From Cyanophora paradoxa CCMP329 (lineage: Eukaryota > Plantae > Glaucophyta), in contig QPMI01000329.1 of NCBI GenBank assembly GCA_004431415.1, positions 1 to 62,666 of the forward strand: 62,666 nt of DNA, read 5' to 3'. The position numbers were made by a program, and so were the translations under genes. The notes beneath the pieces were generated by a model. The model ran no database searches. It saw only the letters and a list, made by a program, of their open reading frames with translations, and was not told the origin of the DNA. Of this stretch, positions 6,001-41,371 are shown piece by piece (positions within the stretch are counted from its first letter, which is position 1; every line of letters begins with the position of its first letter).

Positions 6001-8229
6001 CTGGCGAATCCCAGCGCTCCCTTCCTGCTGTTTGGTGTGGGTGGGGACCCCTGTGAGATTTCGGGGGCGATGGGGGCAGCCCCGAACCCAACCTCGAAAC
6101 TAGAAAACTAACACCCCTCCCTATCATGCAAACCTGCCAGAGTGCTCTGGCGAATCCCAGCGCTCCCTTCCTGCTGTTTGGTGTGGGTGGGGACCCCTGT
6201 GAGATTTCGGGGGCGATCGGGGCAGCCCCGAACCCAACCTGAAACTAGAAAACTAACACCCCTCCCTATCATGCAAACCTGCCAGAGTGCTCTGGCGAAT
6301 CCCAGCGCTCCCTGCCTGCTGTTTCGTGTGGGTGGGGACCCCTGTGAGATTTCGGGGGGCGATGGGGGCAGCCCCGAACCCAACCTCGAAACTAGAAAAC
6401 TAACACCCCTCCCTATCATGCAAACCTGCCAGAGTGCTCTGGCGAATCCCAGCGCTCCCTGCCTGCTGTTTCGTGTGGTGGGGACCCCTGTGAGATTTCG
6501 GGGGGCGATCGGGGCAGCCCCAACCCAACCTCGAAACTAGAAAACTAACACCCCTCCCTATCATGCAAACCTGCCAGAGTGCTCTGGCGAATCCCAGCGC
6601 TCCCTGCCTGCTGTTTCGTGTGGGTGGGGACCCCTGTGAATTTCGGGGGCAATGGGGCAGCCCCGACCCAACCTTGAAACTAGAAAACTAACACCCCTCC
6701 CTATCATGCAAACCTGCCAGAGTGCTCTGGCGAATCCCAGCGCTCCTTCCTGCTGTTTCGTGTGGGTGGGGACCCTGTGAAATTTCGGGGGCATCGGGGC
6801 AGCCCGACCCAACCTTGAAACTAGAAAACTAACACCCCTCCCTATCATGCAAACCTGCCAGAGTGCTCTGGCGAATCCCAGCGCCCCTGCCTGCTGTTTC
6901 GTGTGGGTGGGGACCCCTGTGAGATTTCGGGGGGCGATCGGGGCAGCCCCGAACCCAACCTCGAAACTAGAAAACTAACACCCCTCCCTATCATGCAAAC
7001 CTGCCAGAGTGCTCTGGCGAATCCCAGCGCTCCTTTCCTGCTGTTTCGTGTGGGTGGGGACCCCTGTGAGATTTCGGGGGGCATGGGGCAGCCCCGCACC
7101 CAACCTGAAACTAGAAAACTAACACCCCTCCCTATCATGCAAACTGCCAGAGTGCTCTGGCGAATCCCAGGCTCCCTGCCTGCTGTTTCTGTGGGTGGGG
7201 ACCCCTGTGAGATTTCGGGGGGCGATGGGGGCAGCCCCGAACCCAACCTCAAAACTAGAAAACTCACACCCCTCCCTATCATGCAAACCTGCCAGAGTGC
7301 TCTGGCGGATCCCAGCGCCCCCTGCCTGCTGTTTCGTGTGGGTGGGGACCCCTGTGAGATTTTGGGGGGCGATCGGGGCAGCCCCAAACCCAACCTCGAA
7401 ACTAGAAAACTAACACCCCTCCCTATCATGCAAACCTGCCAGAGTGCTCTGGCGAATCCCAGCGCCCCCTGCCTGCTGTTTCGTGTGGGTGGGGACCCCT
7501 GTGAAATTTCGGGGGGCAATCGGGGCAGCCCCGCACCCAACCTTGAAACTAGAAAACTAACACCCCTCCCTATCATGCAAACCTGCCAGAGTGCTCTGGC
7601 GAATCCCAGCGCTCCGTTCCTGCTGTTTCGTGTGGGTGGGGACCCCTGTGAGATTTCGGGGGGCGATCGGGGCAGCCCTGAACCCAACCTCGAAACTAGA
7701 AAACTAACACCCCTCCCTATCATGCAAACCTGCCAGAGTGCTCTGGCGGATCCCAGCGCTCCCTTCCTGCTGTTTCGTGTGGGTGGGGACCCCTGTGAGA
7801 TTTCAGGGGGCGATGGGGGCAGCCCGAACCCAACCCCGAAACTAGAAAACTAACACCCCTCCCTATCATGCAAACCTGCCAGAGTGCTCTGCCGAATCCC
7901 AGCGCTCCCTTCCTGCTGTTTTGTGTGGGTGGGGACCCCTGTGAGATTTCGGGGGGCGATGGGGGCAGCCCCGAACCCAACCTCAAAACTAGAAAATTCA
8001 CACCCCTCCCTATCATGCAAACCTGCCAGAGTGCTCTGGCAAATCCCAGCGCCCCCTGCCTGCTGTTTCGTGTGGGTGGGGACCCCTGTGAGATTTCAGG
8101 GGGCGATCGGGGCCACCCCGAACCCAACCCCGAAACTAGAAAACTAACACCCCTCCCTATCATGCAAACCTGCCAGAGTGCTCTGGCGGATCCCAGCCCT
8201 CCCTTCCTTCTGTTTCGTGTGGGTGGGGA
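1..8229 (+). repeat. 147-bp GC-rich satellite, homogeneous head-to-tail array (about 56 monomers)
   Basis: The unit ctagaaaactaacacccctccctatcatgcaaacctgccagagtgctctggcgaatcc...gaacccaacctcgaaa recurs continuously. The ORF track shows a 49-codon period (147 bp). Deviations are mostly 1-bp indels in G/C runs. Confidence 0.98.
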
Positions 8230-8538
8230 AGCTCAGCGTGGCGCCATGCCCCCAAAAAATAAAACCCAAATTCCCCCGATAATCCCGATAATAAACCGAT
8301 TCTTCCGAAAATCTCAGTAAGACTCAGTAATAGAATCGATAAAATCGAAATTTATCGTAATGTATCGATAGATTAACCCACGATCTATTTAATCTCGATA
8401 ATCCCGATAATCCCGATACTCACCCGAAAATCTCAGTAAGACTCAGTAAGACTATACGCGCAATACGCTTTTATTCATTGCATCGACAAAAACATGAAAT
8501 TCGCCGCCATGCCCCCGAAATTTTACATCGTTTCCCCC
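8230..8538 (+). repeat. Left terminal inverted repeat (309 bp)
   Basis: agctcagcgtggcgccatgcc...ttttacatcgtttccccc is the reverse complement of 19536-19844. It contains internal direct repeats (cccgataatcccgata; ccgaaaatctcagtaagactcagtaa twice). Confidence 0.96.
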
Positions 8539-8646
8539 CAAAAATACAAAGTGCTGCTTTGCATTTTATACAAAAAATACAAATAAGATACAAATATTTA
8601 TGCTATTTATGTATTAGCGTGCTTCAATTGCTACTTACGTAGGTGA

Positions 8647-9102
8647 TTACTCGAAGGGATCCTGAGAAGAGATCTCACGGACTTCGAGCTTGTCGAGCGG
8701 ATTGCCGTTAAGGGCGTTCAGCATCTTGTTGATACCGTCCAATTTAACAAAGTGTCCGAATTTGCGAATGTATTTGTGCGGGTTTGTCGGATTCTCACGC
8801 ATCGTGAGACGGGTCGCATTGGTGATGCGAAGGAACGCGATGTAATTCTTCAAATCTGCGGCGAACTTCTGATACTCCTGCGAATCCGGATTCGCGATAC
8901 GTTCCAAAAATTCGAGGTCTTCCGTCGTCTTTGAATGAGCTTCTTTGATAGCCGGCGGGATGTCACCCGCGCGAGCCTGAATTTGACCGAAGGCTCGGAA
9001 CATGAGTTCAATCATACCGTTATAATCTTCACGCTGCTTAGTCGGATCACTCATGATGGTCGCTGACATGCTACGAAGCTGGTCGATGGTGAGAGCCGCC
9101 AT
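8647..9102 (-). CDS. Hypothetical helical protein of the element (about 151 aa from MAALTIDQ; an upstream ATG at 9216 is possible)
   Basis: Open frame with protein-like composition. The track's N-terminal extension runs into the GCGCAACC repeats and is probably not real. No family recognised. Confidence 0.6.
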   Translation of the reverse strand: MAALTIDQLRSMSATIMSDPTKQREDYNGMIELMFRAFGQIQARAGDIPPAIKEAHSKTTEDLEFLERIANPDSQEYQKFAADLKNYIAFLRITNATRLTMRENPTNPHKYIRKFGHFVKLDGINKMLNALNGNPLDKLEVREISSQDPFE

Positions 9103-9230
9103 TGGTTCTTGATTTTGTTCGATTGGCTTAGCGACTTTCTGTTTTTTTGAAGCACGATATTGGCGATGATATAGTTTTCTATCGCGTTTTGGTGCGGTCT
9201 GAACGCCTTGCTCCATCTGCCCCGCCCCCC

Positions 9231-9350
9231 CGCAACCATTTTTTTGGTTGCGCAACCCTTTTTTTTGGTCGCGCAACCACCGCAACCTGGTCGCGCAACC
9301 ATCGCAACCTGGTCGCGCAACCACCGCAACCTGGTTGCGCAACCATTTTT
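9231..9350 (+). repeat. Subterminal (GC)GCAACC-based short repeats, left
   Basis: Tandem gcgcaaccaccgcaacctggtc-like units; inverted counterpart at 19411-19535. Confidence 0.85.
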
Positions 9351-10421
9351 TTAAGACCCCCCGCGCTTGGTCAACCCACTTCTCAGATTGTAGCGGCGCC
9401 TCACGACCTTGCTTCGGTTGGGTCTGATCCCTTCCTTCGCAACCAATCTATTCACTTTATTCGTTTTCTTTACGCGTTCGATGCGCTTTTGCGACGGAAT
9501 TCTTATAATTTCCTCCGCGTTCACTTTTTGCAACTCCTGCTTTTTAAAGCGCCTCGCTACCTCTTTCGGTGTCTCCCCATCGTTGTCCTCTAAAACTTTG
9601 AACCTGTTCCGGTCGGTTTTCCCCACCTTATAGACCTTCTGACTGAATTGCGCGCCTTCTTTTTCGAATGCGCCTCGCGGTTGCAAAACGCGAACAGTAT
9701 CACCCGGTTTGATTGTGTTCGGGTCGTTTGCCTTCACGTTATTGTTGTGAACTGTGTCGCGCATGTAAATAAAAAGTTGCTTGTCTTCACTTGCGTAAAC
9801 TGCGTTCGGCGAATCATTCTTCAATGCCGAATGTGGGCTACTGTTGTATACATCCACCACATCCCCCACTAAATCAATCCATTTCGTGGTTGCCTTGGAA
9901 GTCATAGCCTTCCTTAAATACTGCTTGAAGGTTCTCGTGAACCTATCGATTATCCCAAGTTTATCCCCCACACTTATGTGATCATCTTTCGCTAAATCTG
10001 TGTAAAGTGCTACACCATTTTCACTGCACCAATTTCGGTAGACTGCATTCGAAAATTCATTATCCCCTGATAATGCACTAACCTTACCTGCATCTCGTTT
10101 GAACCTATTTAAAATACTCGGAATCTCTTCATTGGTTCTAAAAGGAAACACAAATGCCTTTCTGCTGAGAATGTCTACAAAACTAATCAGTTTAAAATAA
10201 CCATTATTTGCTGTCTGATAACCTCGAAAGAACATGATGTCTACTTGAAATGAATTCGGTTTCGCGACAATTCGAAGGAACGATTTCGGCTTTTTCGGTT
10301 TCTTAAAGATCTGTTGGAGTTCCGAATTCTCAAATCGCTTTTTCAATTCTTTTTCATCAAATCGCACTTTTTCATTTATCAGTTTCTGACGATACTTTGA
10401 GTAAGAGAGGATCTGTTCCAT
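9351..10421 (-). CDS. Retroviral-like (rve) integrase, Polinton type
   Basis: Motifs FQVDIMF, FVDILSRKAF, SGDNEF, IIDRFTRTFK, WIDLVGDVVDVYNSSPHSAL..SPN and a C-terminal GDTVRV SH3-like part. The ATG at 10421-10419 overlaps the upstream stop (TAATG). Confidence 0.93.
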   Translation of the reverse strand: MEQILSYSKYRQKLINEKVRFDEKELKKRFENSELQQIFKKPKKPKSFLRIVAKPNSFQVDIMFFRGYQTANNGYFKLISFVDILSRKAFVFPFRTNEEIPSILNRFKRDAGKVSALSGDNEFSNAVYRNWCSENGVALYTDLAKDDHISVGDKLGIIDRFTRTFKQYLRKAMTSKATTKWIDLVGDVVDVYNSSPHSALKNDSPNAVYASEDKQLFIYMRDTVHNNNVKANDPNTIKPGDTVRVLQPRGAFEKEGAQFSQKVYKVGKTDRNRFKVLEDNDGETPKEVARRFKKQELQKVNAEEIIRIPSQKRIERVKKTNKVNRLVAKEGIRPNRSKVVRRRYNLRSGLTKRGGS

Positions 10422-13400
10422 TATTGCGCGGCGCAATTACACTTAATATGAGACAGGAAACAATTTTTAGTGATATGCGCCACTGCATTGTTCACTCGAT
10501 CCACTGAGATATCGGCGAAATCCAAAGCATCGTAGCACCGACCACAGTGACCGTATTGCTTGCCGTAGCGCTTCTTAATCCAATCCCAAGTGATGTAATC
10601 TTTGTCGTCATACAGTCTGTTCGCAATCCGGTCTTGATCCTTGTAAGTTGCGATTTTTTCGTTCCCGTCGCGCTTGTAAACTATCCAATCTGCATACTCG
10701 TAGCCATTGTGGTAAATCACAACATCACTTAGTCGCGTTGTTCTTGTCAATGCGACGTAAAGCCACTCCTTCGAAACAAAGGGCGCCCCCGCCTCAAACA
10801 CCACCACCCTGTTCCCTTCGCACCGAATCGTATCGCCCTGTATTACGTGACAAGTGTGAGCATACGAAAGAGCGAAATGTTTAACCGCATCAGATTCCAA
10901 CTTGATATGCTCACCGCTCGCAACATCCTCAATAACGAATTCCTTTTCGGAAAAGTTCACAATGTTGTAAGTGAATCCGTTGTGAATCGTGTAACCATTC
11001 TTGACCATGCGCGTCTTTGCGACGATCTTAACGCCGCTCGCGAAAATCGGCACATCTTCCCCGTAGTTCATTCTGTGAAGATTTAGATTCACTTCGGCGC
11101 CCTTCCTATTGGTGTAAACTATCGCGACGTCCGTTTTCTCCAAAGTATCAACCCTCTTGAATTGATACTTTTCGATCACATCAGATACACTCAATCCTTT
11201 CTCGAACAAGTCAGTGTGTATTTTCTCTACTGTTCTGCGATCTTCCACGCTTTCGTGTCGCTTGTTGACTTGTAGTAGCAACTCGTTCTCGAACAGTCGA
11301 TGTAGGATGTCCAAGTAGTATTCTTTCTGGTCTACCGTCATGTCCTGAATCGGTGGGTTCTGGAAGGGATCCCCCGTAGCTATGTAATCCTTGTCGGGGA
11401 ACTGCACACTCATGATGTGATCGAGAGCGGATAACTCGCCAATTTTGAACTGACAGATTTCATCGATTATGATGCAATCGTATTCGACTAATCCGGCTGA
11501 GTTGCCCCCGACGATCTCATCCATTGCGGATTCGTCAATTTTCAGGTGAAGCGCATCGTAGATTGTCTTTACGTTTTTCAAACCTTGTTCTTTCATCTCT
11601 TTCACGCGCTTGTTTGTCGGAACGATGAAAAGCGGGTTTTTGAATCGCTTGCCGTATTCAATTGTCATGTAAGTCTTTCCCACGCCCGGCACGACCCCAA
11701 GTAGAACCCACCGCTTTTGGGTTGCGAGGAGGTCACAGATAGCGAGGGTGTTGAACTCATCGGTTACGGTGTGGCGTTGAAACCCGAACTCCTGAATTTT
11801 AACGAAATCTTCCGATCGCTCAAACCTTCCGCATCGGATGCGCTTGTATTCCAAATCTTTCTTTTCGCCCACGAACTTCTTGTAGAAATTCCTGCATGGC
11901 TTCACACTGAATCGCCCGATATTCTCAAATGCATTTCGGTTAAAGTCTACGGATTCCATGGATCCGATTGCGTAGACACAATCCGTATTCATCGCGAGAG
12001 GATAGATTTGCAATTTTGCGAGTTCTATGCACTTCTCATACATGCACATGCGCATGAGTGAATACATGAGATTGTGGAACGGTAGAAATCCATCAATCAA
12101 TTGCTTTTCCGAAACCTGATTAACGTAGTAAACGTGGGGTTCTGTCATATCGCATTCACTCATAACGAATGTGGTGGGGTCGTAGGTTGTGGGGTCTTTC
12201 CCCAAAAAGTATATCTTCACTTCCCCGCCGTGTTGCTTCTGGAACTCAATCGCATCATCGCGCTTATTAAATACTGTCGTCTTCACCCTGCTATTTTTTT
12301 GCTTCCCAAGTTGACCCGTGTTTGAAACGAGAATCTGTTTCTTATCGGTCGATTCGAGATCGCTCTCTAATACTTGCTTGACTGTGTGACCCGCAAGGTT
12401 ACGAACCAATTTGTATGGCCGTAGAACCCCGGTAATGCGTATGTCGTCCTTTAAGTCGCTGTAATGTTTTTTTAGAACCAAACCGGGGATAACATTGTAG
12501 CGATCACTAACTATCATGCGCTTGTATCTATCATACGTGTTTGCCTCGAACTTGTTCCCGTTCTTGTCCTTCCGCTTGACGAAGTATTTTTCGTTCAGAG
12601 TCACGTAGTAGAAGCTGTATTCTTCGATTTCGTCCGCCGAAGCAATCGAGGCTTTTTTGAACACATCGAACTTGCTCAGAACCGGAACGAACTCAATCAG
12701 ATTCGCGATAATGTGAGGATACGCCTTACACATGTCGACCTCTTTGATGTCTTCGCTGTAATAGATCTCTTCGCGAATTTGTTCATCCAAGTCGAACAGT
12801 CCACGAAGTGCTGTTTGTGATCCGATTTTGAAGGCTGTTTGCGTTTGCTCATTATAGCAACTCTTGTTCGCGGAATTGATCAGAGTGCGATACATCGCCA
12901 AGTTCAGTTTCTCGAATTTTTCGCGATACTCAGCATTTCTGAACTGAATCTCGAAGGCTGTTTCTACTTCGGTGTCTGAACCTGGCGGGGTAATTACTAC
13001 ATCCTTGTCTTCGATCGTGAAGTGAATCTGAGTGATCTTTTTCATGGGCGAGATTGTTGCATGAACTTGATAATTGTGATTCACCACAAATTGTGTAAAC
13101 AATTCATCGAGCGGCGCCCCATAACAAATGCGAATCTTCGACTGATTTTTCAGAGTATCCGAATTCAGAATCTGGACGATCTCATCCGGATTCGAAGCGA
13201 ATTCTTTGTGTCTCCTTTGCTTGATGATCTTGTAACGAGATCCGAGCGAAAGCGTCGTATCTTTCGGCTTTGATCCGTTGAAAGATTGCGTTAGTGATTT
13301 CACATTGTGGTTGAGCAAATACATGTGTTCGTTTTCGATCTTAACGTATGCAACACAGGGAACAAGGTGTTTGTTTCGTGTTTTGGGGTGATAGGTCAAC

Positions 13401-14506
13401 TCAGGGATTACGGTTTTATCGTCTTTCCCAATTGTTACCATTCCCAAGCGTAGCGGTTCGAGAATCTTTGTAACCACTTCCGCGAAAGACACACCCCAAT
13501 CATCCCCTTCAACTGGCGGGCGCCCCCGAACCATCGTAAATAATCCCTCGTATGACCAATCCACTTTCTTGTATTTTCCCTTTTCTTTTGCTTTCGCATA
13601 CGCTGGTGTGAACTGCTGAATAAGAACATCAAACACACACTTCCCGACTTTGAACGCATTGCCTCTAAGAAACATGTCCTGAAAAGTCTTCGCCTCAGGA
13701 TTCATTGCGTAGCGCAAGTAGTTCGAAATGATCATAGGCGCGTGCGTATTGTCCCGAAGAATTTGCTCATTTCTTGGGATGTGCGTTTGGTTATCGGTAG
13801 TAATGATTCGCTCGATTGTCATGATCTCAGGGTAAATGTCCATTTCGACATGGCGAAGGTAACGGAAATCTTGGTTTTGCTTGTTGAAATCGATCACTTG
13901 GAAAATGAAATCGTAGATACGTTCACCCGTCACACAAGGGAATGTGTTAAACGTTCCAAGAATCAGATTAGATGCAACAAGGAAGGCTTCTTTTGTGCAT
14001 TGAACAGCGAGGGGGCGATTGTTGCGAACTCGCTTCGCTTCGATATACGTAATTCCATTCTCGGGGTCGACGACCCGGTTTACGTGCGCGGGGGCTGCCT
14101 CGCCCTCCCTCAATTCCCGAAAGAGTCGAATGTGAATTGTGACCATGTTACCGGGCGAGTTTACAATGAACTCGCGAAGGTCGGTTTTCATCCGATTGAA
14201 CGGATTCGTGTGTGTCTTTGTGTTTCTCTCTGGTCGCTGATTCACCAACTCCTGCGGAACATCAATACGACCCAAGCGGTTAATTTCATCTTCTGTGTTT
14301 TGCTGAGCCTCACCTCTCGCAATGATATCATCAATTGAGAATTCGATGTCGTTTAGTGCGCTTAGTCTCGGTCGTCTGACGAAGGCAAAGTGACCGAATG
14401 CGTTAAATTGCTCTTCATTCATAAACCCATTTCCAAGAGCATAACCAAGCTTCGAAAGAATACTCGCTCTCTTCTTCGCGGATTGGATACTAACTGCGCG
14501 AGGCAT
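10421..14506 (-). CDS. Family B (protein-primed type) DNA polymerase fused to an SF1 (Pif1/RecD-like) helicase, with a possible N-terminal OTU-like protease and C-terminal HNH-like domain
   Basis: PolB-like motifs A DMCKAYP, B KQILVSNTGQLG, C MNTDCVY. SF1 motifs GVVPGVGKT, IIIDE, GDPFQNPP, AHTCHVIQGDT, YVALTR. C-terminus CGRC...SVDRVNN..AH...NC....CNC. Confidence 0.85.
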   Translation of the reverse strand: MPRAVSIQSAKKRASILSKLGYALGNGFMNEEQFNAFGHFAFVRRPRLSALNDIEFSIDDIIARGEAQQNTEDEINRLGRIDVPQELVNQRPERNTKTHTNPFNRMKTDLREFIVNSPGNMVTIHIRLFRELREGEAAPAHVNRVVDPENGITYIEAKRVRNNRPLAVQCTKEAFLVASNLILGTFNTFPCVTGERIYDFIFQVIDFNKQNQDFRYLRHVEMDIYPEIMTIERIITTDNQTHIPRNEQILRDNTHAPMIISNYLRYAMNPEAKTFQDMFLRGNAFKVGKCVFDVLIQQFTPAYAKAKEKGKYKKVDWSYEGLFTMVRGRPPVEGDDWGVSFAEVVTKILEPLRLGMVTIGKDDKTVIPELTYHPKTRNKHLVPCVAYVKIENEHMYLLNHNVKSLTQSFNGSKPKDTTLSLGSRYKIIKQRRHKEFASNPDEIVQILNSDTLKNQSKIRICYGAPLDELFTQFVVNHNYQVHATISPMKKITQIHFTIEDKDVVITPPGSDTEVETAFEIQFRNAEYREKFEKLNLAMYRTLINSANKSCYNEQTQTAFKIGSQTALRGLFDLDEQIREEIYYSEDIKEVDMCKAYPHIIANLIEFVPVLSKFDVFKKASIASADEIEEYSFYYVTLNEKYFVKRKDKNGNKFEANTYDRYKRMIVSDRYNVIPGLVLKKHYSDLKDDIRITGVLRPYKLVRNLAGHTVKQVLESDLESTDKKQILVSNTGQLGKQKNSRVKTTVFNKRDDAIEFQKQHGGEVKIYFLGKDPTTYDPTTFVMSECDMTEPHVYYVNQVSEKQLIDGFLPFHNLMYSLMRMCMYEKCIELAKLQIYPLAMNTDCVYAIGSMESVDFNRNAFENIGRFSVKPCRNFYKKFVGEKKDLEYKRIRCGRFERSEDFVKIQEFGFQRHTVTDEFNTLAICDLLATQKRWVLLGVVPGVGKTYMTIEYGKRFKNPLFIVPTNKRVKEMKEQGLKNVKTIYDALHLKIDESAMDEIVGGNSAGLVEYDCIIIDEICQFKIGELSALDHIMSVQFPDKDYIATGDPFQNPPIQDMTVDQKEYYLDILHRLFENELLLQVNKRHESVEDRRTVEKIHTDLFEKGLSVSDVIEKYQFKRVDTLEKTDVAIVYTNRKGAEVNLNLHRMNYGEDVPIFASGVKIVAKTRMVKNGYTIHNGFTYNIVNFSEKEFVIEDVASGEHIKLESDAVKHFALSYAHTCHVIQGDTIRCEGNRVVVFEAGAPFVSKEWLYVALTRTTRLSDVVIYHNGYEYADWIVYKRDGNEKIATYKDQDRIANRLYDDKDYITWDWIKKRYGKQYGHCGRCYDALDFADISVDRVNNAVAHITKNCFLSHIKCNCAAQ

Positions 14507-14545
14507 TTCGTTGGCGCTTTTCTTATTCTATACAAATAAATTTAT

Positions 14546-14580
14546 TCTTTAAGTGATTTTATTTTACGGCGTCATTTTTT
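14546..14580 (-). promoter_or_regulatory. Putative viral promoter (AAAAAATGACG plus ACTTAAAGA) upstream of the pol-helicase gene
   Basis: The same two motifs recur at 15074-15084 and 15031-15039. The first also recurs at 19388-19398. Each lies upstream of a minus-strand gene. Confidence 0.55.
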
Positions 14581-14741
14581 GACCGTTGCATTTTAGCGAT
14601 CAGACAAGAAAATTAGAAAAATAACAAAGGGTCGACCATCATACAATGGTTCTAAAAATAATACAAACAAGATTTATTACGATTAAGCGCGGTTGCGCTC
14701 GCGCTGGGTTCTCAGGGCAAACGCGCTGAGAAAAAACAATT

Positions 14742-14996
14742 TCAGAAGTAGATCGAAGGGCGCCCCCGATTTGAGTGCGGAACCCCATAAAGGTATTTAA
14801 TGTAACACACCGCGTTCGCGACGTATTGGCGTTGTGAACTATCGACTATCTTCATCGCTCGGTAACACTCGTCGGTGTCGTATAATTCCTTCATCTGTTT
14901 CGAAAGTCTGTTGCTATACTTTTTCAGATACTCACGACCCTTTTCGGTCTTGCGGTAACGGTAAATTGCGCGCTTCTGTGCTTCGCTAATCGGCAT
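14742..14996 (-). CDS. Small basic hypothetical protein (84 aa, MPISEAQKRAIYRY...), possibly DNA-binding
   Basis: ATG preceded by the shared promoter-like motifs; K/R/Y-rich helical sequence. Confidence 0.6.
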   Translation of the reverse strand: MPISEAQKRAIYRYRKTEKGREYLKKYSNRLSKQMKELYDTDECYRAMKIVDSSQRQYVANAVCYIKYLYGVPHSNRGRPSIYF

Positions 14997-15333
14997 CGTG
15001 CTTTGTCCTCTTCTGTTATATAACAAGAAATCTTTAAGTCCTTTTTGTTGTTGGTATATACTTTTTGAAATGCCGTCATTTTTTGCACCGTTTTGAAAGA
15101 AAGATGCCGGAAAAATAAATCGAAGTGTCCCCGATTGTCTACTTGTCGGTCGCAAGTTTCCACGAATGAACCCCGTAGAACAGGTGATAAAAGCGCGATA
15201 TACATGGATATCACATTTTTCTACAACGCCACCCAAAAAAAAATGAGTAACGTGAGCCTACGCGAATGGATTGTTTACGTAGCGCTACATTTGAACAAGA
15301 AATTTTTTAACGGTAAAATGATCATTAAGGGTT

Positions 15334-16092
15334 TTAAAACCTCCGGTAACCGGGGCGGATCCCAAGTTTTGCGAACCCCGAAACCATGGGGGCGGCGGAG
15401 GGAACCGATGTAATGGGGTCGGCTTGCGAAGTGGCGACCCGAAGTAAACTCTTATTCATTACCGGTAAATCGGTCTTGTTACTCTCCGCGTAATCGATGG
15501 TCTTAGCGATTAATTCAATTGGTGTATTTTGCGCGGTTGTGATTGGATCGGGAAGAACGTCGAACGTGACATCCGGTTTCTTTTCGACCTTCTCTTTCGT
15601 GATCTGCTGTTCGAGAATCTTGTTCTCTAACGCGGACTCGTTCGCAATCCCTTGAACCATTTTTTTGGCGTCCTGGTATTTGACCGATTTAAGACCGCCC
15701 GTTTTCAAGCGGATAAAGTAACGATTGCGGTTATCCTTCTCAGAGTATGTCGAATAAAGTCGCTCGCCGCCATCGAGAAGCTTTAAAAGCGTGGCGGATG
15801 GTAAAAGTTTCTCTTTGGTCTTCTCTCTGAAATGCTTTCGCTTCTTGGGCATTCGATTCAGTGGAACCTGGTCAATCAAAGCGTTATCGTCGTTCGCATT
15901 ATCGGTTGGTGTTGCTGTGTGCTGGTTCATCATTTTGTGGATGTCCTTGTCAAGATCACCTGTTCCAAGTGCTGCTGTTCCTTTGGATTTCTTGCCCCAA
16001 TTCCTTCCTGTCTTTCCCTCTGTTATCCTATCTGCATCTGCAACTGGTTTAGCCAAGAAATTCTTGGGTTGGGTTTTCCTGGATCCTGACAT
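15334..16092 (-). CDS. Lysine-rich hypothetical protein (252 aa), possible virion core protein
   Basis: Long ORF 24 bp downstream of the minor capsid gene on the same strand. Function is inferred from position and composition only. Confidence 0.7.
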   Translation of the reverse strand: MSGSRKTQPKNFLAKPVADADRITEGKTGRNWGKKSKGTAALGTGDLDKDIHKMMNQHTATPTDNANDDNALIDQVPLNRMPKKRKHFREKTKEKLLPSATLLKLLDGGERLYSTYSEKDNRNRYFIRLKTGGLKSVKYQDAKKMVQGIANESALENKILEQQITKEKVEKKPDVTFDVLPDPITTAQNTPIELIAKTIDYAESNKTDLPVMNKSLLRVATSQADPITSVPSAAPMVSGFAKLGIRPGYRRF

Positions 16093-16116
16093 TTGATATA
16101 TGCAAAGATATATTTT

Positions 16117-17010
16117 TTACAGATATGACCTACAAAATGGAATGAATGCCTCTTCGAAATCTTGTATCACCTTTTGAAGGGATCTCTTGGTTAGTTCCTT
16201 CTCATCCTCAGTCACAACTTCCAATGTCATACTCCAATCAGTTGTAATGTCTGCTGTGTTACCATTCCAATAAGAAAGTCTTACATCCATTGCTTCAAGT
16301 TCCACCAAGCCATTCTGTTCATGGGTGATCATTGCATTATTTGAAGAATCATATCTAAGCAAACTACCAACTGTCTTGTCAATCTCAATTTTAGCAAGAG
16401 CATTATTGTCTTTAATGTTATTGCTCACATACTTGCCTTTCAGTTGTGCAATGTGAAGTAGTAGGTATGAATTAAATAGAAGGTCTAATGGTATTTCACT
16501 GTCTATGTAGTGTGTGTATGTGTATGATCCAATGGTAACACTCCCATCTAAAAGTGTTGAGGGGTATACTTTGTTTGCATCTTTAAACCCAAGGAAATTT
16601 GCAAGAATCTTACTTCCAATAGTGATGCTGAATTCAACTTCACACATTAATCTTAAAAACATAGTAATGGGATCATAAGTAACATAGAAGTGTTTGGTGT
16701 AGGTTCCACTGGGACTTTGGGAATAGTTCTGTGATCCAATCTTAGCAATTAGGTAATTCACTAAACTGTCTGTTGTGTATGAACCTTTTGCAATAATATT
16801 ATGTCTGTTCTTTGTGCTTCCTGCTGCATCTTTGGTAGATGTGGTAAGTGATCCTGCTTCTGCAAGGTTGTAAATGTTATTGAACATTTCGAAATTGGTA
16901 ACTCTGCATGCTTTTACCTTTTGAATTGCATGGGGAAGTTTGTAGAGAAATTCGGATGGAGTTCCGTTTTCGCGATCTCTCGAATCAATATTAATATAAT
17001 AACGCGTCAT
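16117..17010 (-). CDS. Minor capsid (penton-like, single jelly-roll) protein
   Basis: N-terminal YINIDSRDR...PSEFLYKL and C-terminal MDVRLSYWNG....DWSMTLEV patterns are typical of PLV/NCLDV pentons. Divergent from the MCP gene. Confidence 0.8.
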   Translation of the reverse strand: MTRYYINIDSRDRENGTPSEFLYKLPHAIQKVKACRVTNFEMFNNIYNLAEAGSLTTSTKDAAGSTKNRHNIIAKGSYTTDSLVNYLIAKIGSQNYSQSPSGTYTKHFYVTYDPITMFLRLMCEVEFSITIGSKILANFLGFKDANKVYPSTLLDGSVTIGSYTYTHYIDSEIPLDLLFNSYLLLHIAQLKGKYVSNNIKDNNALAKIEIDKTVGSLLRYDSSNNAMITHEQNGLVELEAMDVRLSYWNGNTADITTDWSMTLEVVTEDEKELTKRSLQKVIQDFEEAFIPFCRSYL

Positions 17011-17062
17011 TCTGTTTATTATTGTAATTTAAAAATTTCTTGTTGTATTGTAAACAGCGAAA

Positions 17063-18289
17063 ATGGCGCTAAGTGGAACAACTCTTAAAGAACTACTTGT
17101 GACTCCCGGTTCGGATCAAGTGTATTTATCTCCTGGTCTTCAAATCGGAACCAATCCCAAGTATAAACCGTTTTTAGAGCAAGTCCGCCCTCGTGGTAAC
17201 ACTTTCGGATTCAAAACAACCGCTTACTTTGATCTACCGCGTAAGCAACTTCTGAGCGGTGTTAGTCTCAATTTTAAGGTCACAACGGGTGGCGCCGTTC
17301 AATGCGTAATGCCCAATGGTGGTTCGTCGTTTATTTCCGAAGTCCGCTTCGTTCACGGTGGGTTTAAATACATTATTCCCGGCGATTGGATTACAGTTAA
17401 TGCGCTCGTCGATAACGACCACGCCACAATGGCGAGCATGTTTGTTTCGCTGGGTTACTACTCTGAGAACAACCGAAACAGCACCGATAAGACCTGGGAA
17501 TATGTCGTTAAAATTCCGGCGCAATTCTGGGATGATGCGTATTTCCCACTTTGCGTTCTTGCCGATATGCCTACGATTGAGGTCGACTTCCGCGAAGCTG
17601 CGGTAGTTCAGGTTCCCGAGGGCGGAAAGGTTGCTATGAACGACTGCGCCCTCATCTGTCAATTCGTTAACATCGCCTCCCCCGAGGCGGAAGCGCTACT
17701 GAAAATGGCGAACGAACAAGGGGGCATTCGCATCCCAATTACCGAAGTGATTCAGAAGCGAACTCGATCTCTCAAAACCGCCGATGCGGGTGAATCTGTC
17801 GAGGTTTCGCTTGCGAATGTTTCCGGTCTTGTTCACAGCATTCTCATGACAGTGCGCGAAGTGAACAAACTTAACAAATACACGCATTCAGATTTCGAGG
17901 GTTACGAAGGAAATGTTAGGATTGATCAATTCCAAATCTTCCACAATAACCGTTCTCTTGACATCTCGAACCGACCGATTAGCGGGTTCCTTTCGGCTGT
18001 GAACCACATCCCCTCGCATTACAAGGGAACTACCGTAGGTAATGTAAACTTCGGATTCCAAGGCGGCAATGTTTACGGGATCGTTCTTTCGAAGTCCGGT
18101 AAGGATTCCCTGCACAACTCTGTCATGGGTTACCAAGATTTCTTCAACTCTTCGAGTTCCTACATGGATCTCACAGTTTCCGGTTGCACTGATGCTGCAC
18201 CTGTTGTTGTTGACATTTACGCACTTCGCCACAACGTTCTCGTTCTCAACGGCTATAATATTTCTACGCTTAAAGTAAGTAACTTCTAA
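17063..18289 (+). CDS. Major capsid protein (double jelly-roll), 408 aa
   Basis: Size, beta-rich pattern (FDLP..LLSGVSLNFKV, SFISEVRFVHGG, YVVKIP, YFPLCVL..IEVDF) and position between the penton and ATPase genes. Confidence 0.8.
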   Translation: MALSGTTLKELLVTPGSDQVYLSPGLQIGTNPKYKPFLEQVRPRGNTFGFKTTAYFDLPRKQLLSGVSLNFKVTTGGAVQCVMPNGGSSFISEVRFVHGGFKYIIPGDWITVNALVDNDHATMASMFVSLGYYSENNRNSTDKTWEYVVKIPAQFWDDAYFPLCVLADMPTIEVDFREAAVVQVPEGGKVAMNDCALICQFVNIASPEAEALLKMANEQGGIRIPITEVIQKRTRSLKTADAGESVEVSLANVSGLVHSILMTVREVNKLNKYTHSDFEGYEGNVRIDQFQIFHNNRSLDISNRPISGFLSAVNHIPSHYKGTTVGNVNFGFQGGNVYGIVLSKSGKDSLHNSVMGYQDFFNSSSSYMDLTVSGCTDAAPVVVDIYALRHNVLVLNGYNISTLKVSNF

Positions 18290-18339
18290 GCGAGTGGTGT
18301 GGGTTATTGGCTTAATCGTTTTTTTATGGGATTACTGTA

Positions 18340-19097
18340 ATGGATAACACAGTAGACCTAAACGATATACCGGAATTCGAGCCGAACAGAACAATTAAAA
18401 TACCTACGCGAATCTTAAATTGTGGACGCTCCAACACTGGTAAGACAATGTTCACTAAATATTTACTTTACGAATTACGCGATAAAATCGATCAGATCGT
18501 AGTTTTTAGTTCGACTGCGTTTACGGGTCAATTTAGAGACATCACCCATCCCGATAATATTTACGAGGAATGGAATGATGATTTAGTTTTAAGATTGATC
18601 AGCATGCAAAAAAAAGAATCGAGAACAACGAGAAACGCCACAATTTAGTTTTGATTCTTGATGACATGATAGGTTCCACACTGGACATGCATAATAATGC
18701 TGTGTTATCTAAATTGGTAACGAGTGGACGCCATTATTCGATTTCGGTTATTTTTAATGTCCAACGTATATGTTCTATTTCTACTACCATTCGTCGTAAT
18801 GTGGAATTCGTTGTATTTTTTAATATTCTTGGGAACGAAAAAGAGTTTAACTGCGCTTACGATGAATACAATGGTGGAATGGATAAGAAAACTTACAAAG
18901 AATTACATCGCCTGTGGGGATATAATTATCAAACTGTAATCGCAAGTTTGCAAGGTTATGACATAAAAACTTACACAGATCGCGCGATTTTGACAGATGA
19001 TGACATGAACGGTTTTAGGAAGTTTATGAGACGAAGAGCGATAAAAAGGAGTGGTGGAGCGAGAATTAGTAGGGAACCGACAACGATTACAGTTTAG
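18340..19097 (+). CDS. A32/FtsK-HerA family genome-packaging ATPase, split by a 1-bp frameshift in the A-run near 18610
   Basis: Walker A GRSNTGKT, Walker B LILDD, and SGRHYSISVIFNVQ. One extra A joins the two track ORFs (MQKKRIENNEKRHNLVLILDD). Confidence 0.92.
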
Positions 19098-19359
19098 GAT
19101 TGCTTTTTGGCTTCGAGTTTCATTCTCAGTCTCAGTCTTGCGAAGTTGGAATCGTGGCGGGCTTCCGCTAATTTGAGGTTTTCATGATACGTATACGAGC
19201 GTTCAGCGTTCAAGTCTTTCTGGCGGAACTCTGAACTTGCGAAAGATTGCAACCGGTTAAACGTGTGAATGCGCGACGCCCGATTTCTTTGTTTTTCTCG
19301 TCTTCTGAAAGATCAAGGTTGACCCCGATAAGATCGAAATATTCTTTTGGGATACTCAT
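19094..19359 (-). CDS. Small hypothetical protein (about 88 aa, MSIPKEYFDL...MKLEAKKQS), needs +1 A in an A-run; not in the ORF track
   Basis: Manual translation. AAAAAATGACG lies about 29 nt upstream, and the stop overlaps the ATPase stop. Confidence 0.4.
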
Positions 19360-19410
19360 GGTTAGCAATCATTTTTTCGGTGCAACGCGTCATTTTTTGC
19401 CCTTGAAGGG

Positions 19411-19535
19411 GTGGTTGCGCGACCAAAAAAATGGTTGCGGGGTGGTTGCGCGACCTGGTTGCGGTGGTTGCGCGACCTGGTTGCGATGGTTGCGCAACCA
19501 AAAAAAATGGTTGCGCGACCAAAACAAATGGTTGC
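19411..19535 (-). repeat. Subterminal GGTTGCGC-based short repeats, right, abutting the TIR
   Basis: Imperfect reverse complement of 9231-9350. Confidence 0.85.
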
Positions 19536-19844
19536 GGGGGAAACGATGTAAAATTTCGGGGGCATGGCGGCGAATTTCATGTTTTTGTCGATGCAATGAA
19601 TAAAAGCGTATTGCGCGTATAGTCTTACTGAGTCTTACTGAGATTTTCGGGTGAGTATCGGGATTATCGGGATTATCGAGATTAAATAGATCGTGGGTTA
19701 ATCTATCGATACATTACGATAAATTTCGATTTTATCGATTCTATTACTGAGTCTTACTGAGATTTTCGGAAGAATCGGTTTATTATCGGGATTATCGGGG
19801 GAATTTGGGTTTTATTTTTTGGGGGCATGGCGCCACGCTGAGCT
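19536..19844 (-). repeat. Right terminal inverted repeat (309 bp)
   Basis: Reverse complement of 8230-8538; no mismatch noticed by eye. Confidence 0.96.
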
Positions 19845-20091
19845 TGGGGACCCCTGTGAAATTTCGGGGGGCAATCGGGGAAGCCCCGCACCCAACCTTG
19901 AAACTAGAAAACTAACACCCCTCCCTATCATGCAAACCTGCCAGAGTGCTCTGGCGGATCCCAGCACTCCCTGCCTGCTGTTTCATGTGGGTGGGGACCC
20001 CTGTGAGATTTCGGGGGGCGATGGGGGCAGCCCCGAACCCAACCTCAAAACTAGAAAACTCACACCCCTCCCTATCATGCAAACCTGCCAG
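19845..20091 (+). repeat. 147-bp satellite, about 1.7 monomers
   Basis: Continues the monomer interrupted at 8229. Confidence 0.95.
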
Positions 20092-20226
20092 TGTTAGCCC
20101 CCCCCCCCTATGACTCTTGTCCCTTGGGTCTTGCCCCTTCAGAGAGTGTCTTGTCTTTTCGTCTTGTTTTTGTCAAAAAGAACTATTTCAACTCTTCAAA
20201 TTACCACTGTAAGCTCTTCGCTTACA
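20092..20226 (+). repeat. 5' LTR (about 135 bp, TG...CA) of Ty3/Gypsy family 1, followed by PBS TGGTAGCA (20229-20236)
   Basis: Runs tgttagccc...cttaca. The same sequence follows a polypurine tract at 57460. The PBS resembles the complement of an initiator tRNA-Met 3' end. Confidence 0.85.
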
Positions 20227-20385
20227 AGTGGTAGCATCGGATCTCACGATCCTTTGCTTGATTCTCCAAAAATTTCACATTACAACCTCAGGCAAACCCT
20301 TGTGCGATTACAGCGCATTAATTTGGACACCGTGGAACAAGATATAGAAGTAGAAGTTGAAGACGATCAGGAAGACGAAGACGAA

Positions 20386-23333
20386 ATGGCTGCTGAAAAA
20401 TCAAAGTTTTTGCTGTCGCTGCGATCAATTCCTGCTGAGGAACGCTTTTCTGGAAGTGGAACTTCTTATGATTACAGTGATTTTCTTATGAAAGTAAAAA
20501 TGGACTTCGAATTCATGAATCTCCAGTTCACAGAGCGGGAAAAAGTGCAGATAATCACATACCACACTTCTGGAATGGCCAATAAACACGTTATGCAAAA
20601 GTTATCGGGTGCTCCCGTTGTCGTGCCCAACGGGTTTTCTGCTGAACTTTTAGAGGAGCTACGAGTGAAATTTGACCTATCGGAACATGAGTATAAGCGT
20701 CGGCTGGACGCACTCAGCCCAAAGCTTCCAAATTCGAACGAAATTTGTCTTAAAACATTTTTGAATGAGGCTATTCCATTGGTTGAGAAGGCTTTCCCAA
20801 ATGCGTCTGATAAGGCTAAGGTAACAGAATTGGCAGCACGCTTATCCAAAATTCCCGGCTTTGAAGAAAAAATTCAAATGCTTATTGTTACTGGCGGAAT
20901 TCAAACGCTTTCGGATTTCGCTAAGGCCCGTGAGAAATTGGATCACGTTGCTGAGATTGAAGACAAAGCAACGAAGCTCAAGGCTCCAGTACCTGAAATT
21001 GGTGTGGCAAAAAGTAGTTCTACTTCTTCGACATCATCTGCGATTGCCACCTCTGGAACTGCTAATGTTGGTATTAAAATTGATGGATTGCAAAATTCTG
21101 GAAATATGGACAAGAAATGTCCTGTTTGCAACATTCCCTATGCCCTTGGCCCGCATCCGTATCCAAATGTTTGCAGAGCCCGCCAAGAGGGCTATGGTAG
21201 CGGGAGTGTGCCGCAACGGACGCCCCCTTCTGGATTTCGTGGTGGGATGCAACAGCTCCCTGGAAATTATCGACCCCCTATTCAGTACCAAGGTGCTCCC
21301 CGACGTGTGAATGTTGTGGAGTCTGAAGCAGATAATGTACCTGATCTGAACAATTCAACTACTGATGTGTACACCAAACACACAAAGCGGATTTATGTGG
21401 CCCAGGAAATGCTAAGATTAAAGCCAGAAATAGAAATAAAGGCAGGGACTGTGCCGCTGGTGGTTCAAGGGGTACCAACACGTGCACTGTTGGATACTGG
21501 AGCCGATGTGTCGTTAACTAGCACTAAACTGATTAAAAGGGCGCAAATGCCGCCTAATATCAGGAAACCTTCAGTGCCTTTGAAGGGTTTCACTCAGAAC
21601 ATTGTTCAGCCATTAGGTCAAGCAAATGTCACAGTAGAACTTGGCTCTTTGAAAACCAGTGAACCAGTGATTGTAATGGATAAGTTATCTCATGAAGTTA
21701 TCCTTGGTCGTGATTATATGATTAAGAATAACGTGGATATTTCGCATTCAAAAGGTGTAGTCTATTCAGACAACAAACCAGATTTATTTGTTCCGATTGC
21801 ATTGGAAAAGAACAAACACAAGCTTATGGTTGCAAAAACAGTTGACATTCCAGCACAAAGTGGTGTTCGAGTGACTCTTCAAGGAAATGTTGACAACAAA
21901 GAAGGGCTTCTTCATTTTGAGCAAACTGAAGTTCTCCCAGGGATCTTTGCAATTTCTGGACTCCAGTCAATGGAGAACAATACCACTTGGGCAGTAATGT
22001 ATAATACAAATGATGAGTTGTTTCGACTGGAATGTGGGAAAGAAATTGGAGAGTGGCATGATTTGGACAGTTATAATATTGAACAGGTAGAAATTTGCAA
22101 TGTAAATTTGCATCAGCATTCAAATCCAGTCAAATCTACAATTGACGAATCGTTTAATAAATCTTTCTTTGATCAGATCAAGAGGGAAATTGACTATGGC
22201 GAAACTGATGCATCACCTGAACAACTTGCCTGCATGGAAGAAATGCTTCGTAATAATTGTGATTTATTTGTTGAAAAATTCAAGTTTGACCCAGCGCACT
22301 GCTTGCCTGGTGAACACAGCATTGAAACTGGTAATGCAGCTCCAATAAATGCTCGACCTATGCAGCATTCACCAAAGGACCGTGAGCTGTTCAAGAAAAC
22401 TATTGACGACTTGCTTCAGCGAAACATTGCAGAACCAAGCGAGTCTCCATGGGCAGCTCCCGCATTCTTTGTTAGCAAACATGGAACTGATGAAAAGAGG
22501 CTTGTTACAGACTATAGACGGCTCAATGCTGTCACTAAGCGGGATGTTTATCCACTGCCTAAAATACAGGATATGCTGGATGCGCTGCAAGGCAATGAAT
22601 ATTTTTCTAACATGGACTTTGCTTCCGGTTTCTGGCAAGTTAAAATGAGGACTGAGGACAAAGAAAAGACGGCCTTCAAAACTCCATTTGGCCTTTTTCA
22701 AATGAATGTTATGGCAATGGGGTTGACAAATGCCCCACCTACATTCCAACGTATTATGGAGCAAATGTTCAATGATTACTTGTGGATTTCTGTCCTGATT
22801 TTTGTAGATGATCTAATCACTTTTTCGAAGTCATTTGATGATCATTGCAGGGACCTGCAGCTAGTGTTCAACAGGCTCCGCAAAAACAATGCGAAATTGA
22901 AGCCTTCAAAGTGTCATTTCTTCAAGAAACAACTGAAATTTCTTGGACACATAGTTTGCAAGGAGGGAAGGAGACCAGATCCAGAGAAACTAAAGGCCAT
23001 CAAGGAGTTTCCAGTTCCAACAAATGCAACTGCTCTTCGTTCCTTCCTTGGCACTTGCAATTATTACCGGGACAATGTACAAGACTTTTCTAAAACAACA
23101 TCGATTTTGTATGACCTAACTCAAAAGGACGTCATATGGAGGTGGACTCTCGACCATCAATCAGCATTTAATAAAATTAAAGATGATTTGCTTCAGGAAA
23201 CCATGCTTCACTATCCCGACTTCAACAAACCATTTGTTATCGAAACTGATGCAAGTGATAAGGGCATTGGTGGAATTCTCTCGCAAGAACAACATGGAGT
23301 GCTAAAGCCCGTTTATTTTTACAGTAGGAAATG
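20386..23333 (+). CDS. Ty3/Gypsy family 1 single-frame Gag-protease-RT-RNase H polyprotein, truncated in RNase H by satellite
   Basis: Knuckle-like CPVC-x8-H-x5-C; LLDTGAD; SPWAAPAFFV, RLVTDYRRLN, YPLP, DFASGFWQ, KTAF, MGLTNAP, FVDD; FVIETDAS. The frame is also open upstream into the LTR. Confidence 0.93.
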
Positions 23334-27408: not shown

Positions 27409-27493
27409 TGGGCGATAAAGCCATTCTAAACGTCATTTAAACTGCGATTACCAAACGCAGTCTTATTTTTCTCTTGTTTTTAGTAGTGAAAAC

Positions 27494-27975
27494 ATGACTG
27501 AACTAGAAGAGTTCAATGCTGGCGAGATGATTTCGAACAGCTTCAGAGCCATTTTTATAGGACGCTCAAACACTGGTAAATCTGAAGCTTGTCTATACTG
27601 GATTAAGCAGCTCCACGATGCAAAAAAAATCGATGCTGTTGTTGTGTTTACCGGGACGAAATTCAATAATTTCTGGGCACCTGTAACTCCCATGGTAATT
27701 GATGGATGGGATGCAGCTTTTGTATCGCAGTTGCTAGATGCAAGGCAGCAAAAGATTGCAGCTGGGGGAAAGGTTAACGAACTTTTAATTGTCCTGGATG
27801 ATTTAATCGACAATGAGCATATTGACCTCCATAAAAGTCCGCAGGTTGCATCCCTCTACACCAGAGGTCGCCATTCCCATATTAGCATAATTTGCATCAC
27901 TCAAAAGATGCGAAAGCTTTCAAGTACAATCCGAGTGAACACTGAATACACATGTATTCTGAATGCCAGTAATCG
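27494..27975 (+). pseudogene. 3'-truncated A32-type packaging ATPase from a second, divergent Polinton-like virus
   Basis: GRSNTGKS, LIVLDDLI, YTRGRHSHISIICITQ. Homologous to but clearly different from 18340-19097. Joined directly to a retrotransposon piece. Confidence 0.88.
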
Positions 27976-29250
27976 CTTGACCCTAAGGGTCGGGGCGGTT
28001 CGCAGCCCCGCCCGGCGGGAAAAGCCTAACCCAGCCTGTTGTTGCCCGCCAGGCTGGGGCGGCCAAGAAACCAGCCATTTTCGGCGCAGCGAATGGACTG
28101 CGATCGTTGTTGCCTTTGATTACTCTCAATGAGTTCTTGAAGCGGCAGTCGTTGTCAGTCGCTCGCGCTTTCCCTTTCCCTTCCTTGGATGCTCCTCAAT
28201 CTTCTTCTCCTATTTCTTCTTCTGGTCCCGATGTTACCCTTCAAGAGAATGATCCCATTATCCATGAGGTTGCTTCAGTGGAAATTCGCCCAGACATTCG
28301 TCCTGGTTTTGGTCAAGCGCATTCGCGTGGAATTGAAAATGTTTTGGATGACTCGAAAAGTGCTAGTAGAGTAGTGGTAGTTAGTGGAAATCGTGGAAAA
28401 TTGGAACAGAAGTCCCTTTCGAATTTCTTTTCTGATGAGCTGCGATGGAAACGAGATGCCCCTGCTAAAAAGCATTTTATATCATCTGCAAACAATTCGA
28501 AGCCGGTTTCCCTGAAGTTGTCTTTTGATGATAATGGCCGAGCCTCAATTCAAATTTGTTCTCTGGACTCCCAGAGCCCTCCTGCTGAGCCTGCATTCGC
28601 AGGGCCGCGTCCCTTCATGACCTCAGCTCCGGGGAGGTCAACTCTGGACGTTGTCATTCAGGGCAAACATCACAAATTCCTTCTCGACAGCGGGGCAGAT
28701 GTCTCTTTCATTCTTTCTTCTACAATCTCTTCTCTTGGACTTCAAAATAAGGTGTTTAGAACTATTCACACTCCTTCTGTCAAGCTCCCGAATTCTGCAT
28801 TGGTGGCTGTTCCCGGTGAGGTTCATGTGGCTGCTACTATTGGGCCCCTCACCCGGAGTTTTCCTTTTCTTGTGGTTGATTTCCCAGGATACGCATTCGA
28901 TGGCATCTTAGGCCAAGATTTCTTTTCTGATAATGGAGTCACCTATTGCAATAAGGACGCTGACAACCGATTTGTGGTCTTCGCCAAGCACCCAGACAAG
29001 CCAGTTAAGTGTGGAATTCTCTCTTTCTTACCTGGCACCTCTACGCAGCCGAGTTCTCTGTCGCCGGAGACACCGGAATCTGACCCCTCGGACGACTCCA
29101 GCACTCGCAGAGTGTCCAAGGAGCATGGTCATATTCTGGAGGTTGCAAGGGAGGTTAAAATTGAACCTGGTGTGCAACGGAAGGTTGAACTGCAAGTCGG
29201 AGGCAACCGCTATTTGCCGGATTGTGAAGGTTTTCTTGTCAACTTCTACA
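27975..29250 (+). mobile_element. Ty3/Gypsy family 2 fragment: gag end, recoding signal and aspartic protease
   Basis: FLLDSGADVS ... DGILGQDF. Homologous to 45284-46625 (minus strand). Confidence 0.85.
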
Positions 29251-33095: not shown

Positions 33096-33468
33096 AAAGT
33101 TGACCTGAAACTCTGCAGCCACCACCAATAAATGCTCCTCCTGATCTCACAGTTACAGCAGCAGTGTTTTTATCATAATCAAGGGCTTTCAGATCAACAC
33201 TGTAAGCATCAGGACCTCCATTTGTAGGCTGAAAGAAGTTAGCATTTGTGACAAGCAGTCGAGTTGTTTTAACCACACCAGAATTCTTATCAGCTCTCAG
33301 CTCTTTAACTCGAATAATCGAATTTTTATCAAAGGAGTTACCATTGGAGTTGGGTCTCTCTGTGGATTCTAAACCACGAACCTCATCATTTACTTCATGC
33401 TGGCGAAAATGCATTGCAGGGGATCCAAGGGAATATATAGGCAGTTGAACTCGATTATATTCACCCAT
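33096..33468 (-). pseudogene. 3'-truncated hypothetical gene of a virus-like cluster
   Basis: Intronless ORF in an AT-rich segment; runs into the satellite. Confidence 0.55.
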
Positions 33469-33507
33469 TGCTTCTTTTACTAAGAAGGAAAGAAAAATAA
33501 ACTACCA

Positions 33508-33813: not shown

Positions 33814-33816
33814 TTA

Positions 33817-41261: not shown

Positions 41262-41371
41262 AATATATAAAAATACATACACATTTCGTTTTTTTCGACT
41301 TTTCATTTAGATCTCGATAGCTAGCAGTTCAAGACTTGTCATGTTCTTGAGAATCTCATAATAAAGTTTAG

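Follow-up and report, generated by a model that had tools for sequence, protein, structure and literature searches.

A compact Polinton-like virus genome, probably integrated recently, in a diverging satellite array of Cyanophora paradoxa

The stretch of Cyanophora paradoxa CCMP329 DNA analysed here (contig QPMI01000329.1 of assembly GCA_004431415.1; 62,666 nucleotides, referred to as the window) contains the genome of a Polinton-like virus (PLV) at positions 8,230-19,844, i.e. an element of 11,615 bp. It starts with AG, finishes with CT and is bounded by terminal inverted repeats (TIRs; 8,230-8,538, plus strand, and 19,536-19,844, minus strand) that match at 309 of 309 nt, counted inward from both ends. 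The target site duplication (TSD) TGGGGA flanks it at 8,224-8,229 and 19,845-19,850 (plus strand), and the insertion splits one 147-bp monomer of a host satellite in register: monomer-phase mapping gives phase 146 before and 141 after the element, i.e. 6 nt are doubled. Among the 38 satellite junctions of the window this is the only one where the array resumes in phase with a duplication. A perfect inverted match of 309 nt, combined with a duplication that keeps the register, cannot reasonably be put down to chance, and on all these points, namely 309-bp TIRs, AG...CT ends and an exact 6-bp TSD within a satellite monomer, a previous sequence-only reading of this DNA is confirmed. The G+C content is ~44% in the element and 60% in the satellite.

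Directly inside the right TIR lies a block of GGTTGCGC repeats (19,410-19,535), the inverted counterpart (86-93%) of a subterminal block of GCGCAACC repeats at 9,226-9,345, which, judging from the sequence, probably belongs to a longer TIR as its inner portion. On the left end only, this longer inverted repeat is broken by a segment of ~690 bp (8,539-9,231) that has C-runs at its borders and carries an open reading frame (ORF), ORF189 (8,647-9,216, minus strand), which codes for a protein with a basic N-terminus and no family match. The contig depth of the segment, which is no copy number, is below that of the replicase gene in two sequencing runs (X2 and X7) and above it in a third (X1), and possibly the segment is an accessory insertion present in some copies. 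The GCGCAACC blocks inside both ends may serve as origin or promoter elements; Rfam gave 0 matches.

ORFs occupy 84% of the element. The minus strand carries ORF189, an integrase of 356 amino acids (aa), a replicase of 1,361 aa, ORF84, ORF252 and ORF297, and the plus strand a capsid protein of 408 aa and an A32-type ATPase in two frames; integrase, replicase and both capsid ORFs have open frames. The integrase (9,351-10,421) is of the rve type (Pfam rve, E 0.003) with the motifs of an acidic triad, read by eye, starting at residues 59, 118 and 157 and an Asp at the third position. Matches of the integrase to RecA in a PDB sequence search were rejected, as there was no passing stretch and the chains were concatenated; otherwise, PDB sequence searches with the element proteins yielded nothing useful. 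ORF84 (14,742-14,996, minus strand) encodes a small basic protein, ORF69 (15,204-15,413, plus strand) may be a small gene and is located where copies differ from each other, and ORF252 (15,334-16,092, minus strand) is CpG-free in its first 63 codons. The element has no fibre or methyltransferase gene and no transcription genes, no Pfam match was obtained for the HUH, VLTF and Mriya48 families, and sequence profiles of Pfam, PHROGs and NCBIfam detected no protease family among its proteins.

As read from its sequence, the replicase (10,421-14,506, minus strand) appears to be a Tlr1-type fusion of a polymerase and a superfamily 1 (SF1) helicase and not a Maverick-type polymerase. The SF1 helicase covers ~residues 930-1,260 (Pfam AAA_19, 30.5 bits at a cut-off of 25.1; RecD2, E 2.4e-8), and no DNA polymerase family matched in profile searches of the element proteins. 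By eye, Cys/His motifs are found at the vOTU position (288 and 391), followed by the polymerase motifs A, B and C at 589, 723 and 839, with motif C lacking its first Asp, and by a nuclease-like Cys/His tail at the C-terminus. Tlr1-like pPolB-S1H fusions are described as having lost the first Asp of motif C and as carrying a terminal HNH or GIY-YIG nuclease (PMC11161782; this and all further papers are cited from partial texts), and the assignment is suggested because domain order, lost Asp and terminal nuclease fit this description.

Among 1.84 billion representatives, no more than 4 relatives of the 408-aa protein (17,063-18,289, plus strand) were found, with identities of 25-27%. A word-based homologue search gave 0 matches among 2,499 candidates and an alignment-based search 2 matches, 1 of them new; the sole named relative is a predicted protein of C. 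paradoxa (P0122, EukProt; 22-25% identical). Based on an alignment of 6 sequences, AlphaFold2 yields a model (predicted local distance difference test score (pLDDT) 65, predicted template modelling score (pTM) 0.73) that superimposes on Vp54 of PBCV-1 (Foldseek E 1e-18; VIA Z 28.0, root-mean-square deviation 3.3, 330 residues aligned). The other Z scores are 20-27 for capsids of nucleocytoplasmic large DNA viruses (NCLDV), 17.3 for PRD1, 16.3 for Sputnik and 14.7 for mavirus, and the Atlas features of the protein score 0.98 to the Capsid_N/Capsid_NCLDV clusters, with a low recognition value. As modelled, the protein is a major capsid protein of the double jelly-roll type with Vp54 as its nearest structure. 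The neighbouring ORF297 (16,117-17,010, minus strand) likely encodes the minor capsid (penton) protein: its Atlas (language-model) features score 0.97-0.98 to viral clusters including Nucleocytoviricota and Preplasmiviricota, the recognition value being just under the threshold, and its terminal motifs are presumably penton-like; PDB and Pfam gave no match. The profile sets and tables of a bioRxiv framework paper, as well as Table S4 of PMC10120064, may already allow the capsid group or the host to be classified.

The packaging ATPase of the A32 type (18,340-19,097, plus strand) is frame-broken. Pox_A32 matches the two pieces with scores slightly short of the cut-off (E 0.0017 and 0.0002), and the frame changes at an A-run (18,608-18,615), the only clear lesion of the element. 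All functions proposed by the sequence-only reading, i.e. replication, integration, capsid and packaging, are thus represented by genes, the first by a Tlr1-type fusion and the last by a split one, and as assembled the element cannot be called apparently intact, as it had been, with the ATPase frame broken. The double jelly-roll fold suggested for the 408-aa protein is supported by the structure search, albeit at the level of a model. Likewise, no adenain-type protease is recognisable, but this does not set the element apart as a special minimal lineage, since outside Polintoviricetes and Gosseviruses PLVs usually have none (PMC12220804, 10.64898/2026.06.19.733378).

Related copies of the element exist and form a family with it. 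Among the sequencing runs listed, 20 of 24 contain 74-79% of its words; they represent one organism and 13 studies, one of the 20 may be the source of the window itself, and no RNA run is among the runs listed with element words. All four runs examined in detail cover the element fully (all 30 bins), and in each of them loose contig ends suggest paralogues of the capsid and penton genes. Contigs of run X2 differ from the window at 13 of 2,379 and 2 of 1,407 letters, and outside a variable region (14,800-15,800) long contigs of other runs are ~0-1% different from the window (~99.5% alike), suggesting, together with the ATPase span discussed below, that the frame break may be particular to the analysed copy or to the assembly. 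Among viral contigs no related locus with capsid, replicase or integrase was confirmed, and among metagenome contigs none with capsid and integrase. Run X1 covers the whole element (8,170-19,400) with almost no satellite (first-bin depth 45 vs 83,584 in X2); it is unlike total genomic DNA, and as its kind is guessed, it provides no evidence of transcription or enrichment but a lead on either.

In C. paradoxa, repeats are reported to be under repressive CpG methylation (PMC12344493), which may well be what the CpG depletion of the host-side repeats reflects: the observed/expected (o/e) CpG ratio is 0.51 in the satellite, 0.64-0.75 in retroelements and 0.50 in the fibre-like debris described below, as opposed to 1.43-1.48 in the element. 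The element is young, because its TIRs are identical at 309 of 309 positions, it is CpG-rich, and so has not been under methylation for long, and contigs of other runs are near-identical. In this respect the proposal of a young, compact (11.6 kb), integrated PLV stands.

One kilobase deviates from this pattern. In a CpG-depleted patch at 15,903-16,890, over the penton-like gene, 1 CpG is observed where ~54 are expected, i.e. a single CG lies between the bounding CGs, and both edges are inside genes. Codons 41-297 of ORF297 contain 1 CG (42.4 +/- 5.0 expected) and codons 1-63 of ORF252 none (12.1 +/- 2.5 expected), whereas the adjoining parts of the two genes are normal (7 vs 8.9 and 52 vs 39.8 CG); codons 61-120 of the integrase are also low (3 CG vs 12.7 +/- 2.5). 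There are 0 NCG codons versus 33 NCA codons, TG and CA are in excess (1.48 and 1.40 over 15,860-16,945), and the G+C fraction is 0.38 versus 0.45. None of 2,000 simulations with fixed amino acids and codon frequencies taken from the other genes of the element was as CpG-low, the effect amounting to ~8 standard deviations for patch borders that were picked after the data had been seen. The depletion exceeds that of every host repeat measured, the neighbouring parts are CpG-enriched, and the patch is covered in all four runs, making it a family trait.

The array that received the element (1-8,229, plus strand; ~57 monomers of 147 bp) is homogeneous to ~7,000, and its last 6-7 monomers before the element are diverging: from 7,288 on, ~0.9 kb before the element, substitutions relative to the reference monomer climb from mostly 0-3 to 3-9 per monomer. 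On the other side the satellite continues in register for 250 bp (19,845-20,094, plus strand) and is then followed by a fragment of a Ty3-type retroelement. Pairwise monomer identity is 98% left of the element and 92% right of it, where inversions and insertions occur. Within positions 1-7,000, 36 of the 54 measured monomers are shorter than 147 bp, always by deletion (89 deletions, 0 insertions). This is typical of unpolished long reads and likely an error of that kind; just 19 of the 89 indels lie in runs of at least 3, and homopolymer error is not established assembly-wide. Further to the right (23,333-61,494), the ends of satellite runs cluster within ~10 nt of the site of the element's TSD, near the near-palindrome GGGGACCCC of the monomer: 25 of 59 counted ends are found there (15% expected), a value reached by 0 of 5,000 random sets. 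The count drops 19 of 78 ends, namely the element's own 2, the window start and 16 repeats of one higher-order unit. No G-quadruplex motif was found in a dimer of the monomer.

Several other features are interspersed with the satellite blocks. Remains of PLVs comprise a truncated second A32 ATPase at 27,411-27,985 (Pox_A32, E 8e-10; 31-38% identical to that of the element; CpG o/e 0.76), which is joined to a retroelement fragment and is debris of another PLV family, and a fibre-like ORF at 33,096-35,596 with a terminal Peptidase_S74 chaperone domain (E 4e-17), small ORFs beside it and a CpG o/e of 0.50, which is likely debris of an older PLV. Both fragments stem from PLVs other than the element and are poorer in CpG, so PLVs have entered this heterochromatin more than once. 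Several Ty3-type retroelements, all truncated and from different families, are located at 20,095-23,332, 41,325-46,792 and 56,198-59,504; for a retroelement polymerase the best local identities to known sequences are ~50%. An intron-less fragment of a family 7 glycosyltransferase (E 2e-22) lies among repeats at 47,690-48,738, and the sequence at 38,195-41,270, with a G+C content of 65%, looks coding, has short gaps resembling introns and no Pfam match, and is cut by satellite. A higher-order unit of ~1 kb, five copies of which are found at 50,902-56,197, is built from satellite blocks in alternating orientation, whose junctions have the same phases in each copy (74/8 and 120/97). At the end of the window (61,816-62,666) a second satellite with a 124-bp monomer begins.

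We regard it as quite probable that the element is a compact PLV genome that its own rve integrase recently inserted, duplicating 6 bp, where the satellite array frays at its edge. Whereas its ends, duplication, gene set, capsid fold and CpG pattern come directly from the analysis, the steps of its life cycle are modelled on known relatives. The polymerase-helicase fusion would replicate linear DNA, either excised or delivered by an incoming virion, starting at its ends; the A32 ATPase would package it into a capsid of double jelly-roll proteins whose vertices are occupied by the 297-aa protein, and the rve integrase would re-insert it. As the element has no transcription genes, expression would depend on the host nucleus or on giant-virus transcription, the closest demonstrated model being a helper-dependent, virophage-like cycle. 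Several points weigh against this picture. The score of the integrase is lower than the curated Pfam cut-off, and the polymerase, vOTU and nuclease parts of the replicase were read by eye and have no profile match. The capsid model, with its 6-sequence alignment, is middling (a single-sequence model reaches a pLDDT of only 32), and ORF297 is, going by its sequence, a likely candidate for the penton only. Moreover, the ATPase is split in the analysed copy, contigs over the ATPase span carry one gap relative to the window in all four runs, its exact place not being listed, and a donor of the CpG-poor patch was not found within the window.

The position of the element could be explained by targeting, i.e. 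the integrase would direct the virus to the satellite at the G-rich GGGTGGGGA|CCCC site and thereby to a safe harbour. The insertion indeed falls where other satellite runs break far more often than in any random set, and the two fragments of other PLVs likewise lie between satellite runs. However, there is one insertion only, with a 15% chance of landing in that 22-nt interval, and in the count itself the break ends depend on one another, the places where alignments stop are biased by G/C runs and 19 of 78 ends were dropped. Moreover, those breaks lack duplications and are thus rearrangements rather than insertions, and for mavirus-like elements no sequence-specific integration was found (PMC8547959). 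Satellite-targeting PLVs are absent from the titles and abstract openings of the literature searched. We consider targeting unlikely; the virus probably landed in heterochromatin that is tolerated or accessible, and not at a specific target. Nor did the element start the scrambling of the array, an extremely improbable scenario to which the drop in monomer identity from 98% to 92% and the inversions and insertions on the right might be taken to point. Substitutions rise from 7,288 on, ahead of the element, whose ends and duplication are untouched, and the array stays in phase for 250 bp afterwards. Since divergence starts before the element and the array keeps its phase beyond it, the element lies within an already diverging array edge and is not the cause of the scrambling; contrary to what had been proposed, it does not mark the switch from pristine to scrambled array. 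About as improbable as targeting is that the element is dead or a non-autonomous derivative that relies for copying and packaging on proteins from other PLV families of the genome. The split ATPase, the lack of fibre and methyltransferase genes and of a detected protease gene, a size below the 14-40 kb of protist PLVs (PMC10120064) and the debris of other families nearby would fit such a derivative, but the frames of the integrase, the replicase and the two capsid proteins are uninterrupted, contigs of other runs deviate from the window inside the ATPase span, and the deletion-only errors of the flanking array (89 vs 0) are typical of unpolished long reads.

As to the CpG-poor patch, the penton-like gene and parts of its two neighbours were likely acquired by recombination with an older PLV relative that had long been CpG-methylated in a host genome. 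We favour homologous recombination because the edges of the patch are sharp and inside genes, and since its frames stayed open, selection would have acted on the donor during its loss of CpG. Mosaicism in general has been described (10.64898/2026.10.13.758929, PMC8547959); CpG-mosaic PLVs are absent from the titles and abstract openings of the literature searched. Alternatively, methylation concentrated on the penton region of every copy may have produced the CpG-free kilobase locally, in agreement with its presence in all four runs and with a TG/CA excess as expected from deamination. This is slightly less improbable than targeting, but still unlikely, given sharp edges inside two genes, a lower G+C content, a depletion stronger than in any host repeat measured and CpG-enriched neighbours; moreover, in the one host of a named relative methylation covers whole repeats (PMC12344493). 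With more doubt than confidence, we speculate that an active, minimal PLV family with a capsid unlike that of described groups renews its vertex protein and integrase core from methylation-scarred copies in satellite heterochromatin, where PLVs would collect at a break-prone monomer site. The silenced archive would then act as gene bank, with CpG content mapping the exchanges to the base. If the patch is a recombination scar, it is a simple marker, and one that can be dated, of gene flow into a young family from endogenous viruses that had been silenced, which is otherwise hard to show.

Glaucophyte PLVs, including those of C. paradoxa, have already been mentioned in print (PMC8502044, PMC12220804). 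The Tetraselmis endogenous PLVs are TIR-bounded and contain capsid, penton and ATPase genes like the element, and as they reactivate only with a giant virus they are a model for a helper-dependent cycle (10.1101/2025.10.09.676808). They are larger, however (18-19 kb), have fibre genes and other replicases, and their activity has been shown. With Zora-, Zephyr- and Mriyaviruses the element has in common a capsid fold nearest to NCLDV, and PolB-SF1 fusions occur in some Zephyr and rve integrases in many Zora members (10.64898/2026.06.19.733378), but it is half their size or less and gave no Pfam match for the HUH, VLTF2/3 and Mriya48 families. Most likely, the element is a small and divergent PLV of the Tlr1 type. 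It resembles Tlr1 of Tetrahymena and other pPolB-S1H PLVs in its rve integrase, the putative exonuclease-less polymerase-helicase-nuclease fusion, the double jelly-roll capsid, the A32 ATPase and the TIRs (PMC11161782, PMC12220804). Its TSD also agrees with the 5-6 bp of such PLVs. It differs from them in its smaller size (11.6 kb), its CpG mosaic and a capsid protein without detectable sequence relative among described groups. Mavericks/Polintons (Polintoviricetes) share the TIRs, the 6-bp TSD and the rve integrase as well as AG…CT ends, a feature of this group; in contrast to them, the element has no stand-alone pPolB with exonuclease, and no maturation protease was found. Virophages are set apart by the capsid, the model of which, although middling, is closer to PBCV-1 (Z 28.0) than to Sputnik (16.3) or mavirus (14.7) and does not correspond to a virophage-type capsid. 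Thus, the element is neither a strict Maverick nor a virophage of the Sputnik/mavirus type. Its size falls short of the range of protist PLVs given above but not of that of Oxyrrhis elements, which measure 5-27 kb (PMC12721341), and it adds to the known systems a very small, divergent PLV that current sequence profiles miss.

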